Source: Escherichia coli
Lineage (GTDB): Bacteria; Pseudomonadota; Gammaproteobacteria; Enterobacterales; Enterobacteriaceae
Assembly (NCBI GenBank): GCA_011600865.1
Contig: GCA_011600865.1_4890.1
Strand: one strand, 5' to 3'
Length of the DNA: 52,276 nucleotides
Shown: in pieces, positions 18,092 through 22,398 of the stretch
How the letters are laid out: every line of letters starts with the position of its first letter
How positions within the stretch are numbered: position 1 is the first letter of the stretch
Program-made: the position numbers and the translations under genes
Notes under the pieces: generated by a model
The model's input: only the letters and a program-made list of their open reading frames with translations
What the model was told of the DNA's origin: nothing
Databases searched by the model: none

Positions 18092-18367
18092 ATGTCTAAG
18101 ATAGGTTTAGAGTATGAGGCAGATGAAACGCTTAAGTTAAGGGCGAAGGAGATACTAGACGCCTCAGGCTGCACGTCAGGCCTGGACTGGTTTACGAAGA
18201 TATTCCAGGAAGAACCAGAAGCTGTTGCCAAAAAGATTTACAAGAGTAATACTTTACGACAGGATATTCCTGTGCTGTGCTTCCAGATACGTGGCGATGA
18301 TGATTGCTGGACGCAACAGCTATGCGATGAATTAGAAACCCTGTATTGTGAAGAAGAGGGAAAATAA
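18092..18367 (+). CDS. Hypothetical protein
   Basis: 91 aa acidic ORF after the polymerase gene. Confidence 0.55.
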   Translation: MSKIGLEYEADETLKLRAKEILDASGCTSGLDWFTKIFQEEPEAVAKKIYKSNTLRQDIPVLCFQIRGDDDCWTQQLCDELETLYCEEEGK

Positions 18368-18591
18368 TGATTGAGACTACACGCACATCAGACCTTAATG
18401 ATATGGCGGCAGAAGCTGAACAAGTGGCCCGTGACACAGCACTGTTAAACCGTGTCAGATATACAGGCGTAAGTCCGCTGATGTGTTACCAGTGTGGGGA
18501 TGATATTGAAGAAAAGCGTCGTCAGCTTTTACCTGGTACAGTATTGTGCGCGGCGTGTGCGCAGTATAACGAACTAAAAGGTAAACGTTAA
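18367..18591 (+). CDS. TraR/DksA-like C4 zinc-finger protein
   Basis: 74 aa with CYQC ... 17 aa ... CAAC spacing typical of the TraR/DksA zinc finger. Confidence 0.6.
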   Translation: MIETTRTSDLNDMAAEAEQVARDTALLNRVRYTGVSPLMCYQCGDDIEEKRRQLLPGTVLCAACAQYNELKGKR

Positions 18592-18596
18592 TAAGC

Positions 18597-18619
18597 AAGG
18601 GGCCTTCACTCGGCCCCTT
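18597..18619. terminator. Bidirectional intrinsic terminator between convergent gene blocks
   Basis: Perfect 8 bp stem aaggggcc / ggcccctt with loop ttcactc, between the plus-strand stop at 18591 and the minus-strand stop at 18606. Confidence 0.5.
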
Positions 18620-18914
18620 TGTTGCTCCAGTTAATTATGCTGTCCATCTTGTCTGCACAGTCATCAAGAGCTGTTCCGCGTTCAATAGCTAACTGGCCTA
18701 TTGCTTTCCAGGTATTACCGGTTAATTCAGGCTTATGGCATTTAACCATGTAGGCGCCAGGCGGATAAACCTTGACTATCCTGTCAACATAAACAACTTC
18801 AGGCTTATCAGCGCACGAGGTCAAGAACGGCAGAAGGAGCAACGGTATTAGCACACGAATCATCTTTTGTCGCTTCGTCATATTTACCTTTCTTATCACG
18901 CAGTTGTTGTTCAA
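18606..18914 (-). CDS. Outer-membrane spanin (o-spanin, Rz1-like lipoprotein)
   Basis: Signal peptide with lipobox-like LTSC (MIRVLIPLLLLPFLTSC); the true start is probably an internal Met (MTKRQK or MIRV). Overlaps the 3' end of the i-spanin gene. Confidence 0.6.
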   Translation of the reverse strand: MNNNCVIRKVNMTKRQKMIRVLIPLLLLPFLTSCADKPEVVYVDRIVKVYPPGAYMVKCHKPELTGNTWKAIGQLAIERGTALDDCADKMDSIINWSNKGAE

Positions 18915-19137
18915 GCTCAGCTATCTTACTGGCGCGTTTGGCTGAAGCCTCACGCTCATCCTTTACGGAGTTAATCAGCGTTTGATTAGCAGCAGATAAC
19001 TCGCCATTGGTTTTGTTAAGCTGTTTGATTGTACCGTCGCGGTCGGCAACATCACCTTTCAGCTCACGTACCCACAAAGACAAGAACATAATGGCGATGC
19101 CGAGAATAGCTGCAATTATTGCGCCGGTTTTAGACAT
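18808..19137 (-). CDS. Inner-membrane spanin (i-spanin, Rz-like)
   Basis: N-terminal transmembrane helix IIAAILGIAIMFLSLWV followed by a charged coiled-coil region; position after the endolysin. Confidence 0.6.
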   Translation of the reverse strand: MSKTGAIIAAILGIAIMFLSLWVRELKGDVADRDGTIKQLNKTNGELSAANQTLINSVKDEREASAKRASKIAELEQQLRDKKGKYDEATKDDSCANTVAPSAVLDLVR

Positions 19138-19691
19138 AAAGCTTTTTCCTTTTGCTTACGTATTGTCAAGCCCCTGTACTTGCCACCCATATCCCAGTCA
19201 GTTATGCGATTACACATTTCCGTCCAGTTTTGTTTACGAGCAGCAGTATATATTTTGGTAGGCGAGCCATCCTTGTTCTTACGGAGTCTAGTGCAGCCAT
19301 GGTTGAATACCATAGATGTCATGGCACTGAACTGATTGGTGTTCATATCTTTACCGTGGAACCAGTCATTAACACACTTTTCAGCCTCTTGAATATTCTT
19401 GACCCAGCGGTCAGCAATCTCCTGGTCTGTCAAGCCTTCGCGGCGTACAGCGGGCTCATCGTTGTAGATGCGGCTACCAATACCAACTGTTAAATAACCA
19501 GTAGGGCACACATACGGGTTGCGCATACAACCTTCTGCATTACCGATTATCTCAAGACCTTCTTTATTAGTACGGACATGCGTACTTGTCATCGACAGAA
19601 CAAGCCCGATGATAGCGAGCACGCTACAGCCTCCTTTAGTCGCTGCTGATTTCAGACTCACGCAACACCTCTTCTTTCGATGCGACTTCAT
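19116..19691 (-). CDS. SAR endolysin (T4 lysozyme family, P1 Lyz-like with cysteine regulation)
   Basis: N-terminal weakly hydrophobic SAR-like segment CSVLAIIGLVLSMTS; lysozyme core EGLEIIGNAEGC...YVCPTGYLTVGIGS with Glu, Thr and GIG of T4 lysozyme, but Cys at the position of catalytic Asp20 and an EGC cysteine. Confidence 0.85.
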   Translation of the reverse strand: MKSHRKKRCCVSLKSAATKGGCSVLAIIGLVLSMTSTHVRTNKEGLEIIGNAEGCMRNPYVCPTGYLTVGIGSRIYNDEPAVRREGLTDQEIADRWVKNIQEAEKCVNDWFHGKDMNTNQFSAMTSMVFNHGCTRLRKNKDGSPTKIYTAARKQNWTEMCNRITDWDMGGKYRGLTIRKQKEKALCLKPAQ

Positions 19692-19896
19692 CCTCTATCG
19701 GCTTCTTACGATTGTAATAATCCGACATAATTTTGGTTCGCCGTGTTTGGTTATACGTAACAACAATAAGCATCACTAACGAGCTGAGTATACCGATAAT
19801 AGTACCCCAATCACTTAGTGATAAAGTACTTACTGTTATTGTTACCCAAGCCACAAACTGGCCAATAAGGGAAGGCTTGTCGTTGTAGTCAAACAT
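19636..19896 (-). CDS. Holin (pinholin-like, two transmembrane segments)
   Basis: Start refined to the ATG at 19896 with GGAGAT RBS; two hydrophobic helices (FVAWVTITVSTLSL and GTIIGILSSLVMLIVVTY) and a charged C-terminus; directly upstream of the SAR endolysin. Confidence 0.55.
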   Translation of the reverse strand: MFDYNDKPSLIGQFVAWVTITVSTLSLSDWGTIIGILSSLVMLIVVTYNQTRRTKIMSDYYNRKKPIEDEVASKEEVLRESEISSD

Positions 19897-19998: not shown

Positions 19999-20502
19999 TT
20001 ATGGTCGTACAGGCCAGTCAATATGCGGCGCATCTGACATTACAAGCAACATCAAATCAGCACGGAATTTATGCAAAGCGATGATACGTTCTTCATCCTC
20101 TTCAGTGTCGAGTTGCTCTTCAACCCAAGCCTGTTCTTCCTGCAGGCGCTCTTCTGCAATTGCTAACTGCAGTTCCGAGTGCTTAACGAATTTGCCATTA
20201 ACGTAAGACCACTCGTAATAGCAATCCGCAAACTTATCAGCAGGCACAGAGTCAACAATATGCAAATCACAGTTAACAGGAAACAGCAACGTAGGATTGT
20301 TAGAATACGCCGCCACAGCATTGTACTTATCCACAACAATATAGTGAACCAGCTCTTTATTCTTAGCCAGCTCTTTAGCCAACTTGCGCCAGTCATTACC
20401 GTTGTTATCCTTGATGAATACAACGCCTTGCTTAATCAGCGGAAGTGTCTCCGCCGTCCTTTGTGGGTTGTATTCTGTAAAGTTGAAAAATGACAGTTGC
20501 AT
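19999..20502 (-). CDS. Tail fiber assembly protein (Tfa chaperone), paralog 2
   Basis: 167 aa; clear paralog of the adjacent 180 aa protein (FFNFTEYNPQ vs FRNFTMYHPE; NDWRKLAKEL vs RDWYNLAKEL); Tfa-like C-terminus ending DWPVRP. Confidence 0.65.
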   Translation of the reverse strand: MQLSFFNFTEYNPQRTAETLPLIKQGVVFIKDNNGNDWRKLAKELAKNKELVHYIVVDKYNAVAAYSNNPTLLFPVNCDLHIVDSVPADKFADCYYEWSYVNGKFVKHSELQLAIAEERLQEEQAWVEEQLDTEEDEERIIALHKFRADLMLLVMSDAPHIDWPVRP

Positions 20503-20505
20503 GGT

Positions 20506-21048
20506 TTACTCCGGCATAGGTGGAACAACCATAGCGGAACCAAGATTAACGTCAAGACGATTGACAGCAATCCTGTAATCACGCCATTTAGCAAACAGCT
20601 CTTTTTCTTCATCGGTAGCATTGCCACTATCAACTGTGTCGCGTAAAACACTGACCTTGGTCGAAGCGATGGACAGAGCTTGTTCTTTACGCTCACGAGC
20701 AATCTCCTTCATCATTGGTGCGTTAAGCGTAAACTCTTTACCGTCGAAAAGCCATTCGCCGACAGTCTCGAAGATATTGAAAGGCGGGTCGTATGTTACA
20801 ACCATATCACAACCCACAGGATGGAACATAGTCGGGTCGGTATGTGCAGCAATTACAACTCCGTTCTTATCTATCTGCAAGAACGTTGCGCCTTCGTATT
20901 TGATAACTAACTCTTTTGCGAGATTGTACCAGTCGCGACCTTCCTCATCCTTGAGGAAGATTGCACCAGCATTTACAATGTTCTCGTTCTCTTCTGTTAC
21001 CTCAGGATGGTACATGGTAAAATTACGGAACACCTTATGCTTAGTCAT
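20506..21048 (-). CDS. Tail fiber assembly protein (Tfa chaperone), paralog 1
   Basis: 180 aa immediately downstream of the tail fiber gene; Tfa-like C-terminal region WRDYRIAVNRLDV...PPMPE. Confidence 0.65.
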   Translation of the reverse strand: MTKHKVFRNFTMYHPEVTEENENIVNAGAIFLKDEEGRDWYNLAKELVIKYEGATFLQIDKNGVVIAAHTDPTMFHPVGCDMVVTYDPPFNIFETVGEWLFDGKEFTLNAPMMKEIARERKEQALSIASTKVSVLRDTVDSGNATDEEKELFAKWRDYRIAVNRLDVNLGSAMVVPPMPE

Positions 21049-21057
21049 AGTAAACCT

Positions 21058-22398
21058 TTACGATACGTTGCTTACGTTAATCCAAGTGCCGTTGATATAA
21101 TACTGTAACGGCGCTGACCAGTACGAGCCACCGCGCAGCTCTTTTTTATCGCCGAAGCGCCAGCCAGTCATTACATGCCCACGGTAGAACGTTGACTCGG
21201 ATACACCAGCAGCAATACGAGCGCCGAGTCGAATACCCCGAACGTTACCGGCTGAAGTATCGATAGGCTGCGGGTTGTTAGGTGAATATACTCTAACACC
21301 ATTCTCGCATAAAATAAAGCTGTTTGTGGTAGTTACTCTGCTGTTAAGGCCATCTACCTGCAAAGCTACTGTACGACGGTCGGCAATACCACCAGGGCGA
21401 CACACTGCCATGTTAATCTGGGTGGCACCACCTGCCGTAAGAATGTGCTGGATATGTGACATAGGCACAGAACCCCAGCAAGCCGCAGTGATAACGTTAC
21501 TGTTAGCCGCAACAGAAACAGAAGTCAGCAACTCCTGAACAGCAGTACCGCCTGCAATGTTACCGGAGTACTCAACAGTACCTACGCCGGCGGAGTTAGC
21601 AGCACGCAGCAAGTCGGAAGTAGTACGTGCAATATGTAACCAGCCGATAGTACCTAAGTTACCACGGATTGAGTCAGAACCATCCATAGGGATGAAGTCC
21701 TGGTTAATACCCAGCTCAGCGGCCGTAGGTTTATTGTCAGGCCCGTAAGAGTATGACCAGCCACCCCAGGTATTGTTAACCTTCTCACGCATAGCAATTA
21801 CGCGCTTACCTTTGGTTCGTGCCCACTGTGAAGCGTTATTAGCATCCCAGTTGATGTGCAGAATCTCAGTCTCAACGCCGTTAGTAGGTCCGCCAGTACC
21901 TGACGCTGGAAGCTGATAGATACCGTCATCTGTAATGCTGTTAGCATTAGTAACGACTTCAGCATTACCACCTAAGCCAAACGCTCCAACCTGGATTACG
22001 TTACCAGAGGCTTTACCTATCTGACGTGCTGCAGCAGACGCAGCGGTCAGGTCGAGTACAGGACGCCACTGCGTGGGGTTAGCCGACGGTACCATGTTAA
22101 TATTTTGCACCAGACAACGGTACAGCATATTGTCAGCATTAACTTTAACCAGTGCACCAACCGGGTAGGTCTCAGTTTCTACCCATACGTCAACACCCTG
22201 CTGTAGGATGTAGTGGATACCTTTGTCAGTACGGTTACCGATAAAGTTAAACCACTCCATCGGAGGAATACCTTCCGAGTAGCCGAGGGTTGCACCCCAG
22301 CCTCGAGCAAGGTCACCGAACGGCAGCAGTTCACCAGTACCCGCTGAGCTGGCGAAGATGTCGTTATCGGGTCTTGTTTGTACATCAGCCATATACAT
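21058..22398 (-). CDS. Tail fiber protein
   Basis: 446 aa Gly/Ala/Thr/Asn-rich protein upstream of two Tfa chaperone genes and downstream of the baseplate genes. Confidence 0.6.
   Translation of the reverse strand: MYMADVQTRPDNDIFASSAGTGELLPFGDLARGWGATLGYSEGIPPMEWFNFIGNRTDKGIHYILQQGVDVWVETETYPVGALVKVNADNMLYRCLVQNINMVPSANPTQWRPVLDLTAASAAARQIGKASGNVIQVGAFGLGGNAEVVTNANSITDDGIYQLPASGTGGPTNGVETEILHINWDANNASQWARTKGKRVIAMREKVNNTWGGWSYSYGPDNKPTAAELGINQDFIPMDGSDSIRGNLGTIGWLHIARTTSDLLRAANSAGVGTVEYSGNIAGGTAVQELLTSVSVAANSNVITAACWGSVPMSHIQHILTAGGATQINMAVCRPGGIADRRTVALQVDGLNSRVTTTNSFILCENGVRVYSPNNPQPIDTSAGNVRGIRLGARIAAGVSESTFYRGHVMTGWRFGDKKELRGGSYWSAPLQYYINGTWINVSNVS

Follow-up and report, generated by a model that had tools for sequence, protein, structure and literature searches.

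The caging of the P1 endolysin Lyz by a disulfide, and its activation, have reportedly been described residue by residue. This SAR/disulfide paradigm is summarised in PMC3556154 and PMC9239132. A SAR N-terminus is defined by 2-3 basic residues ahead of a TMD that is uncharged, weakly hydrophobic and made up largely of small residues (PMC9239132), and the catalytic triad of GH24 is defined as Glu-x8-Asp/Cys-x5-Thr (PMC3556154). Pinholins are defined functionally, i.e., they make holes of nm scale, kill and depolarise the cell and cannot release a cytoplasmic endolysin (PMC9025707).

Haemophilus phages HP1 and HP2 have a hol-lys pair, i.e., a pinholin plus a SAR endolysin, and experiments supported that HP1 Hol is a pinholin; its partner is a SAR endolysin that is 49% identical to P1 Lyz (PMC7312051). 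For the active form of HP1 Hol, an unusual topology (N-in/C-out) is reported. The evidence for this pinholin comes mostly from overexpression. In lambdoid phage 21 (S21 68 and R21), release of the SAR endolysin is brought about by a class II holin, the TMD1 of which is weak.

The window, i.e., the whole stretch of 52,276 nucleotides that was analysed, is a Rosemountvirus-like myophage (records of the BP63 group are 95-97% identical). Its lysis cassette consists of four genes on the minus strand: holin, endolysin, i-spanin and o-spanin (Table 1). It is the ordinary late lysis gene set of such a phage. Very likely, this set combines a P1-type SAR endolysin caged by a disulfide, a pinholin-like holin and spanins; tethering, non-cleavage, disulfides and hole size are deduced from homology. 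The endolysin is a routine case of the P1 Lyz type, in an HP1-like lysis cassette, and its mechanism is without novelty. The label "SAR-endolysin" is already found on related database records, and a literature search gave no paper pairing «Rosemountvirus» with «SAR endolysin». The value of the present analysis is one of annotation; its biological significance is small.

Table 1. Positions of the lysis cassette features in the window.
Feature	Position	Strand	Remarks
Holin gene	19636..19896	-	86 aa, class II, two TMDs; probable pinholin
Holin TMD1 (LIGQFVAWVTITVSTLSL)	19816..19869	-	Thr/Ser-rich, weakly hydrophobic
Holin TMD2 (WGTIIGILSSLVMLIVVT)	19756..19809	-	after turn motif SLSDWG
ATG of the 191-aa ORF	19689..19691	-	probably no start; 10 codons too far upstream
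Shine-Dalgarno-like AAGAGGT	19667..19673	-	5 nt upstream of GTG 19661
SAR endolysin gene, corrected	19116..19661	-	GTG start, 181 aa + stop; GH24 lysozyme, P1 Lyz type
Predicted SAR segment GGCSVLAIIGLVLSMTST	19581..19634	-	18 uncharged residues, 50% Gly/Ala/Ser/Thr/Cys; Cys12 codon 19626-19628
GTG of most GenBank Rosemountvirus records	19620..19622	-	168 aa; probably not the main start
Catalytic/regulatory motif E43-G-C45-x6-C52-x5-T58 (EGCMRNPYVCPTGYLT)	19488..19535	-	from sequence, P1 Lyz alignment and homologue alignments; codons (181-aa numbering): Glu43 19533-19535, Cys45 19527-19529, Cys52 19506-19508, Thr58 19488-19490
i-spanin gene	18808..19137	-	109 aa, N-terminal TMD, coiled coil
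o-spanin lipoprotein gene	18606..18881	-	ATG 18881 (91 aa) or ATG 18863 (85 aa)

The endolysin and its cysteines

The endolysin matches Pfam PF00959 with 71.9 bits (cut-off 22.3, E 7.7e-20), and phmmer against the PDB gives P1 Lyz (1XJT, E 2e-42), with an alignment that reaches into the SAR segment. Given these two results, the resemblance to P1 Lyz (UniProt Q37875) is not due to chance. Identity is 45.9% by tblastn, i.e., about 46% over the full length, SAR segment included. The NCBIfam search of the lysozyme gave a weak match to a GTA endolysin only.

Sequence and structure comparisons lead to the conclusion that the endolysin is homologous to P1 Lyz along its full length, including the N-terminal segment, and has the same three regulatory or catalytic Cys: (i) C12 in the SAR helix; (ii) C45, i.e., Glu43+2; (iii) C52 at the position of the Asp of T4 lysozyme. 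The spacing of the triad, Glu-x8-Cys-x5-Thr, is of the T4 lysozyme type, and Cys replaces Asp as in P1 Lyz. The first-pass annotation had proposed a SAR endolysin of the P1 Lyz type, in which one Cys takes the place of the catalytic Asp of T4 lysozyme and another one comes two residues after the catalytic Glu. Both Cys were found in 94/94 database homologues, the triad spacing is exact, and the GH24 fold and the SAR Cys, present and conserved, support the proposal as a whole. P1 Lyz (1XJT), with which it had suggested an alignment, is the best match by sequence as well as by structure.

Conservation is not limited to these positions. The seven Cys (C12, C45, C52, C96, C123, C150 and C176) are all conserved in 93/94 homologues, and E43 and T58 in 93-94 of the 94. 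C12 is found in 93/94, the sole exception being an N-terminally truncated annotation. The seven Cys are also invariant in a 55-sequence alignment, the mean column identity of which is 45%.

The AF2 model of the endolysin (pLDDT 89.8) has a lysozyme fold, and its best fold match is 1XJT (active P1 Lyz), with a TM of 0.79-0.81 over 175 columns, SAR helix included; this support is not independent, since 1XJT is in the AF2 training data. The inactive form 1XJU is a poorer fit (TM 0.57-0.67). The model also matches the R21, P22 and T4 lysozymes.

Besides the triad, P1 Lyz and the endolysin of the window share the Glu+2 Cys, a single SAR helix Cys and the four remaining Cys. They differ in the position of the SAR Cys. 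In the window it comes 3 residues after the final Lys, close to where the 18-residue uncharged stretch has its cytoplasmic end, whereas in P1 Lyz it is deeper, in an uncharged stretch of 24 residues. There are also two small length changes in the C-terminal lobe. HP1/HP2 Lys is of the P1 Lyz type as well (SAR Cys, EGC and CP motifs) and is 40% identical to the endolysin of the window. R21 is only a distant match (18-19% identity in the fold alignment); it has no regulatory Cys and has Asp in its triad.

Lyz103 of Erwinia phage ERA103, which is reportedly caged by a disulfide, also has a SAR segment Cys and the Glu+2 Cys. However, it has C-E-G-C around the catalytic Glu and Asp in the triad, whereas the endolysin of the window has N-A-E-G-C and a triad Cys (29% identity). 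The latter thus follows the P1 scheme and not the Lyz103 scheme; the pair of Cys in C-E-G-C together with a triad Asp, i.e., the mark of Lyz103-type caging, is absent from the endolysin of the window.

Start codon and N-terminus of the endolysin

As judged from sequence conservation, the endolysin almost certainly starts at GTG 19661 and has 181 aa. A start codon (GTG or ATG) is kept at this position in 9/9 genomes compared, and it is the sole start position common to all. The motif AAGAGGTG upstream of it is also found in SE4, S144 and S1.

The ORF considered by the first-pass annotation, from ATG 19691 (191 aa), is 10 codons too long. This ATG is not conserved: it is missing in SE4, an in-frame TAG is found downstream of it in S144 and S1, and in KE25, fHy-Eco03 and SOI901 the ORF opens just 4 codons before the conserved start. 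Moreover, no spacer separates this ATG from the GAGG in front of it. Among the three N-terminal Cys that had been listed in the 191-aa numbering, C22 is the conserved C12 of the SAR segment; C9 and C10 are almost certainly not translated.

GTG 19622 is the annotated start in BP63, in the «Listeria» phage record and in SE4. It is preceded, 7 nt upstream, by a near-perfect Shine-Dalgarno sequence (AAGGAGG), directly after the stop codon of the holin gene. As main start, it would lead to a soluble cytoplasmic lysozyme of 168 aa, without functional SAR segment or SAR Cys, freed through the large holes of a canonical holin. This is highly improbable. The codon is missing in S144, S1, KE25 and fHy-Eco03. 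The homology with P1 Lyz, and with 93 further homologues, extends upstream of it, invariant Cys included, and this extension scores well in AF2 (block pLDDT 93 for residues 11-20). The SAR segment would be cut to 14 uncharged residues and the invariant Cys lost. The product would begin with a hydrophobic stub of 14 residues, which is not a TMD and is not normal for the N-terminus of a soluble protein either. The sequence MSLKSAATKGGCS is expected at the endolysin N-terminus with start 19661 and not with start 19622.

Some Gram-positive endolysins have been described with secondary translation products. The gene might, in a comparable manner, yield two products in the BP63 subgroup, to which the window belongs: the 181-aa SAR form from GTG 19661 and a 168-aa form from GTG 19622. 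The short form, devoid of the SAR Cys and of half the SAR helix, could then be an isoform, cytoplasmic or regulatory, by which the timing of lysis is adjusted. Such a double use of the gene is considered very improbable.

With start 19661, and only with it, the endolysin has the N-terminus of a SAR protein as defined above. MSLKSAATK, which contains two Lys, precedes the SAR segment. The composition and hydropathy of this segment are comparable to those of P1 Lyz and Lyz103, i.e., proven SAR domains. In the AF2 model it is helical (residues 14-24; block pLDDT 93 and 85).

The same N-terminus also shows the layout of a signal peptide (n-region, h-region and small residues), with possible signal peptidase sites (-3/-1) after the hydrophobic core, i.e., VLS/M and TST/H. 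Endolysins with cleavable signals are known (mentioned in PMC7312051). After cleavage of a Sec signal peptide, the enzyme would be a processed, soluble periplasmic lysozyme (cf. Lys44 of oenococcal phage fOg44), controlled otherwise, e.g., by membrane energisation alone. Two observations make this very unlikely: the homologous N-terminus of P1 Lyz is experimentally uncleaved and is kept in the active crystal structure 1XJT, and an invariant Cys in the h-region (93/94) is sensible only if the segment stays in the mature protein. An uncleaved SAR segment is thus the preferred reading, and SLKSAATKGGCSVLAIIGLVLSMTSTHVR is the N-terminal stretch expected with start 19661 in that case.

In most public Rosemountvirus records, the endolysin start is placed 13 codons late, which deletes the regulatory SAR Cys and half the SAR helix. 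Cloning antimicrobial «endolysins» by the annotated coordinates would give a protein truncated at its N-terminus. About 60 genomes of related phages can be re-annotated on this basis, with respect to the endolysin start as well as to the link between the holin and the family of HP1 pinholins.

The holin

The holin gene is directly upstream of the endolysin gene and overlaps it by 26 nt. A Shine-Dalgarno sequence (GGAG) is located 7 nt upstream of its ATG, and no dual-start motif was found in the gene. The first-pass annotation had noticed a small membrane protein with two helices at this place. It has indeed 86 aa and two hydrophobic segments (residues 10-27 and 30-47), after which comes RRTK...RKK. 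The small size and the two TMDs, together with the charged tail at the C-terminus and the positive region next to the membrane, make up the layout of a class II holin. The summed dG (Hessa scale) is +2.6 for TMD1 vs. -0.6 for TMD2. It should be noted that the database records differ: the BP63 protein has only 1 TMD (TMHMM/Phobius) and the S144 protein has 2, with N-in/C-in topology. The turn motif SLSDWG is conserved, and it is common to HP1-family holins.

The holin matches phrog_1350 «holin» (E 7e-15). With Pfam it stays below the gathering cut-offs: 14.2 bits for PF04971 (cut-off 26, E 0.044) and 13.1 bits for PF16080 (cut-off 28.8, E 0.096). The NCBIfam search of the holin gave nothing meaningful. 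An exhaustive profile search among 1.84 billion representatives gave only 4 proteins at E<=1e-3; the holin subfamily is therefore narrow. Two out of three distant relatives of the holin exceed Pfam cut-offs, namely those of PF16080 (HP1 holin) and PF04971 (P21 S).

Using hhalign, the holin profile was matched to HP1-type holins (PHL101 ORF8 and P0102, both above the PF16080 cut-off) with 97% probability (E 7.8e-11), and to the single HP2 Hol sequence with 78%. Compared directly, the holin and the S21 pinholin give a weak match (5-7%). HP1-type holins match S21 with 86%, thus the relation of the holin to S21 is transitive only, and a direct homology to S21 68 was not retained. On the basis of sequence profiles, the holin belongs to the HP1 branch and not to the S21 family, because the direct S21 match is only 5%. 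Homology to the P1 pinholin LydD was rejected (hhalign 0.4%).

The hol-lys locus of HP1/HP2 has the same gene order as the window, with overlapping genes. Its holin is also of class II, with an S-L-x-[DE]-W turn between the TMDs and no dual start. Nevertheless, the similarity is remote (BLASTP, 36% identity over 28 residues), and the C-terminal tail of the holin of the window is longer and acidic. With S21 68, the holin shows a local similarity around SxSxW-xxIG-LxSLV, in addition to the sub-threshold PF04971 match; the window differs in having no dual-start antiholin. The two-step logic is the same as in phage 21.

The first-pass annotation had called this protein a pinholin-like partner. Class II topology, the weak TMD1 and the HP1-type match agree with that; the Pfam scores below the cut-offs and the poor direct match to S21 do not. 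To regard the holin as a pinholin is reasonable, and we infer it from remote homology and gene context. The endolysin may instead be of the P1 type and be released by the collapse of the membrane potential that a canonical large-hole holin produces. Any depolarisation releases SAR endolysins, which also work with large-hole holins: P1 Lyz does so with the canonical LydA and LydC (PMC9025707). Hole size is unreadable from sequence, holins and pinholins being alike (PMC9025707), and the holin fails the cut-offs of both the S21 and HP1 families. A large-hole holin is a possibility to be kept in mind, albeit the less probable one. The nearest recognisable relatives of the holin of the window are of the HP1 family, and HP1 Hol killed cells without release of beta-galactosidase (PMC7312051). 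Moreover, the holin of the window shares with S21 68 the class II topology and a TMD1 of weak hydrophobicity, and pinholins usually adjoin a SAR endolysin (PMC9025707).

The cassette and the proposed course of lysis

The two genes downstream of the endolysin gene, the first of which overlaps it by 22 nt, have the features of a two-component spanin, i.e., an i-spanin with an N-terminal TMD and an o-spanin lipoprotein with a lipobox (LTS-C), encoded by adjacent or overlapping genes. The i-spanin matches PF10828 (DUF2570) with 31.7 bits (cut-off 26.6) and phrog_214 (Rz-like spanin). The o-spanin matches PF23793 (LysC, E 5e-20) and phrog_456. DUF2570 and LysC are both above their own Pfam cut-offs. 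The scan for promoters and terminators around the cassette gave nothing above the shuffled expectation.

The endolysin is probably kept inactive by a disulfide until its small partner depolarises the membrane. By analogy with P1 Lyz, it would be exported by Sec and tethered to the inner membrane, N-in/C-out, by its uncleaved and weakly hydrophobic SAR helix. In this tethered state C52 would be locked in a C45-C52 disulfide, with the enzyme inactive and C12 buried in the bilayer. Upon depolarisation of the membrane the SAR helix would exit the bilayer. C12 would then attack the caging disulfide, so that C12-C45 is formed and C52 is freed, and the domain would refold to the active conformation. 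The timed depolarisation would be the task of the upstream holin, a putative divergent member of the HP1 family. This holin most likely forms small holes, because the endolysin can cross the membrane without large ones. Disruption of the outer membrane by the two-component spanin would come next.

The genomic context differs from that of P1, in which lydD, an unrelated pinholin gene, comes after lyz and the gene of the main holin is unlinked; in the window, holin, endolysin and spanins form a compact cassette. The small genes upstream of three other P1-type endolysins were compared with the holin of the window. Two of them encode small proteins with two TMDs, which gave no significant match to the narrow holin profile. 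The third one (L015) is a PF16080-type holin in a four-gene cassette as in the window. The same order of four genes (PF16080 holin, P1-type lysozyme, DUF2570 and LysC), with similar overlaps, is found in a Pasteurellaceae prophage.

The lysis cassette and its surroundings

The 1.4 kb around the lysis genes are 95-97% identical to BP63-group phages of Salmonella and Escherichia, and the window is a Rosemountvirus-like myophage. Four overlapping genes lie between a pair of tail-fibre assembly genes and a DksA-like zinc-finger gene that runs towards them; together, the four form the standard lysis cassette of a phage with a Gram-negative host.

Features of the lysis region and its neighbours, with the candidate endolysin starts
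Feature	Position	Strand	Remark
DksA/TraR-type C4 zinc-finger gene	18367-18591	plus	converges on o-spanin gene end (18606)
o-spanin, LysC/Rz1-like lipoprotein	18606-18881 (or -18863)	minus	
i-spanin, DUF2570	18808-19137	minus	
GH24 lysozyme ORF (endolysin)	end at 19116	minus	
in-frame start GTG	19622	minus	168 aa; used in BP63 and most GenBank relatives
in-frame start GTG	19661	minus	181 aa; conserved position
in-frame start ATG	19691	minus	191 aa; used in the first-pass annotation
membrane protein (holin)	19636-19896	minus	86 aa
tail-fibre assembly (chaperone) genes, tandem pair	19999-20502, 20506-21048	minus	directly upstream of the lysis cassette
tail-fibre gene	21058-22398		446 aa; adjoins the two assembly genes

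The o-spanin ORF of the window speaks for a length of 85-91 aa (start at ATG 18863 or ATG 18881) and includes the signal MTKRQKMIRVLIPLLLLPFLTS-C. In the BP63 RefSeq record (L002 1507-1725) the o-spanin is annotated with 72 aa, starting at or after the lipobox, and the signal sequence is thus missing. The BP63 annotation also places a bidirectional rho-independent terminator between the ends of the zinc-finger and o-spanin genes; at the equivalent junction (18367-18620 region), a simple search for terminators in the window gave none. Caudo_TAP matches only the first of the two tail-fibre assembly genes, and weakly (E 0.0018, below cut-off). ARAGORN found zero tRNA genes in the whole window (1-52276).

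It should be noted that PP583539.1 (L001), «Listeria phage 220426122051» with Listeria monocytogenes as stated host, matches Salmonella and E. coli Rosemountviruses at about 95-96% identity throughout the lysis region, and that its cassette is of the Gram-negative type (spanins and SAR endolysin). The stated Listeria host looks doubtful.

Identity and start of the endolysin

The motif string EGCMRNPYVCPTGYLT of the first-pass annotation is encoded exactly as given. With phmmer against all PDB sequences, the top match is P1 Lyz, the SAR endolysin of phage P1 (active form 1XJT, E 2e-42; inactive form 1XJU, E 9e-39), aligned from the N-terminal hydrophobic segment through the C-terminus; Pfam PF00959 is matched well over its cut-off. 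Residue conservation was read from an alignment in which P1 Lyz, Lyz103 (SAR endolysin of Erwinia phage ERA103) and T4 lysozyme stand beside 94 database homologues. Of these 94, 93-94 keep the catalytic Glu, the Thr and the two cysteines pointed out in the first-pass annotation, i.e., at the position of T4 Asp20 and two residues past the catalytic Glu, and likewise the lone N-terminal Cys and four more Cys common with P1 Lyz. All these residues are also invariant in an alignment of 55 sequences, in which column identity averages only 45%. Because of this conservation, the cysteine/triad pattern is real and far beyond chance. Glu-x8-Cys-x5-Thr is the P1 variant of the published T4-type triad spacing (PMC3556154). 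The Lyz103-type scheme is ruled out: the endolysin has no C-E-G-C, and its triad contains Cys rather than Asp.

Every testable character of a P1 Lyz-type SAR endolysin was found, and the sequence supports this assignment, as proposed at first reading. In related GenBank records the gene already bears the label «SAR-endolysin», with similarity to Q37875 given; a literature search found no paper discussing a SAR endolysin for Rosemountvirus.

The starts were compared in nine genomes (window, BP63, «Listeria» phage record, SE4, S144, S1, KE25, fHy-Eco03, SOI901). All nine share a start codon at the 19661 position alone: GTG behind AAGAGGTG in one group, ATG in KE25, fHy-Eco03 and SOI901, whose proteins begin MSLKSTATKAGGITCSV. 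The 181-aa start is already annotated in S144 and S1 (labelled «SAR-endolysin» in S1). ATG 19691 was rejected as unconserved, its equivalent being absent in SE4 and followed by an in-frame TAG in S144 and S1, while the ORF of the KE25 group opens just 4 codons ahead of the conserved start. A soluble endolysin translated from GTG 19622 is highly improbable: a 14-residue hydrophobic stub would be left, the invariant Cys would be deleted, and the codon is missing in S144, S1, KE25 and fHy-Eco03. The endolysin start is likely GTG 19661, judging from these comparisons; C9 and C10 of the 191-aa ORF, counted at first as N-terminal cysteines, are therefore most likely untranslated, and only C22 (= C12 of the 181-aa form) stands.

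The 168-aa internal-GTG annotation (window 19620-19661 equivalents; L001, L002, L008) is found in BP63, SE4, the «Listeria» phage record, SPHG1 and others, so the correction applies to many public records. It drops 13 codons, the invariant SAR cysteine among them; one such shortened entry nevertheless carries the label «SAR-endolysin».

Translation from GTG 19661 gives MSLKSAATK and then an uncharged stretch of 18 residues, GGCSVLAIIGLVLSMTST, in which Gly, Ala, Ser, Thr and Cys make up one half; the SAR domains of P1 Lyz and Lyz103, both proven, are closely similar in composition. An N-terminus so placed also accords with how SAR domains are defined in practice, i.e., two to three basic residues, then a weakly hydrophobic TMD (PMC9239132). 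An AlphaFold2 model on the family alignment (mean pLDDT 89.8) predicts residues 14-24 as helical (block pLDDT 93 and 85). Its top PDB match is 1XJT (TM 0.79/0.81, rmsd 2.9 A, 175 columns), 1XJU being second (TM 0.57-0.67), then other GH24 endolysins including R21 (phage 21 endolysin) and T4 lysozyme. The predicted structure agrees with the sequence evidence but is not independent of it, as the model was trained on data that include 1XJT. A cleaved signal peptide, for which possible -3/-1 sites are present, is very unlikely, given the invariant Cys within the hydrophobic core and the helix retained in 1XJT.

The holin and HP1-type lysis modules

The small two-helix holin noted upstream of the endolysin is confirmed: it matches phrog_1350 «holin» and has two hydrophobic segments with a very short turn in between. 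Of the two, TMD1 is rich in Thr and Ser and clearly the weaker (summed values on the scale of Hessa et al. 2005: +2.6 for TMD1 vs. −0.6 for TMD2), in line with the records, where BP63 has one TMD and S144 two. The holin has no dual-start motif. Pfam matches are sub-threshold (PF04971, P21 S, E 0.044; PF16080, HP1 holin, E 0.096). A profile of Rosemountvirus and Loughboroughvirus holins retrieved only three distant relatives among 1.84 billion representatives, one above the PF16080 cut-off and another above that of PF04971. In profile-profile comparisons, HP1-type holins (Mannheimia phage PHL101 ORF8 and P0102) reach 97% probability (E 7.8e-11), Haemophilus HP2 Hol 78% and the S21 family (phage 21 pinholin) 5%; the P1 pinholin LydD gave no match. 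The turn motif SLSDWG (SLHEW in HP2) is common to the holin and HP1-type holins. This link of the holin to the HP1 pinholin family is a useful by-product.

HP1 hol is directly upstream of, and overlaps, a SAR endolysin gene whose product is 49% identical to P1 Lyz; in experiments, HP1 Hol proved to be needed for phage release and killed cells without lysis or beta-galactosidase release, and the authors of that study consider it a pinholin (PMC7312051). The SAR-Cys, EGC and CP pattern recurs in HP2 Lys, and in a Pasteurellaceae prophage the four genes come in the order of the window cassette (PF16080 holin, P1-type lysozyme, DUF2570, LysC). Since holin profile, HP1/HP2 features and prophage gene order agree, the cassette can be assigned to HP1-like lysis modules, here in an enterobacterial myophage. 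As regards the holin alone, the canonical type with large holes is rather unlikely, although the sequence does not reveal hole size and canonical holins also serve P1 Lyz (PMC9025707).

Proposed mechanism and related observations

What the analysis of the window shows is homology, motif conservation, SAR-like composition, a likely start codon, gene order and overlaps. The model for the endolysin steps is the P1 Lyz mechanism, reportedly established by Xu et al. in 2004 and 2005. By analogy, the endolysin would be inserted in a Sec-dependent manner and tethered N-in/C-out by its uncleaved SAR helix, a C45-C52 disulfide occupying the catalytic Cys. The holin, as in HP1 and phage 21, would cause timed depolarisation via small holes, upon which the SAR helix would exit the bilayer; C12 would then resolve the caging bond to form C12-C45, leaving C52 free as the endolysin refolds. 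The spanins would complete lysis last. The P1 Lyz mechanism is summarised in PMC3556154 and PMC9239132.

The holin/endolysin overlap (19636-19661) comprises 26 dual-coding nt. The last holin residues (ES-I-SD) are kept even in the divergent KE25/SOI901 group, whose holin tails are otherwise different, likely because the same bases encode the endolysin start MSLKS. For fHy-Eco03 (MW602648.1), LC-MS/MS of the phage particles led to a «virion associated» remark on the homologues of holin, endolysin and i-spanin, and the endolysin and spanins are among the proteins detected for S144 (PMC7432712, Table 2); this association is probably due to co-purified membrane debris.
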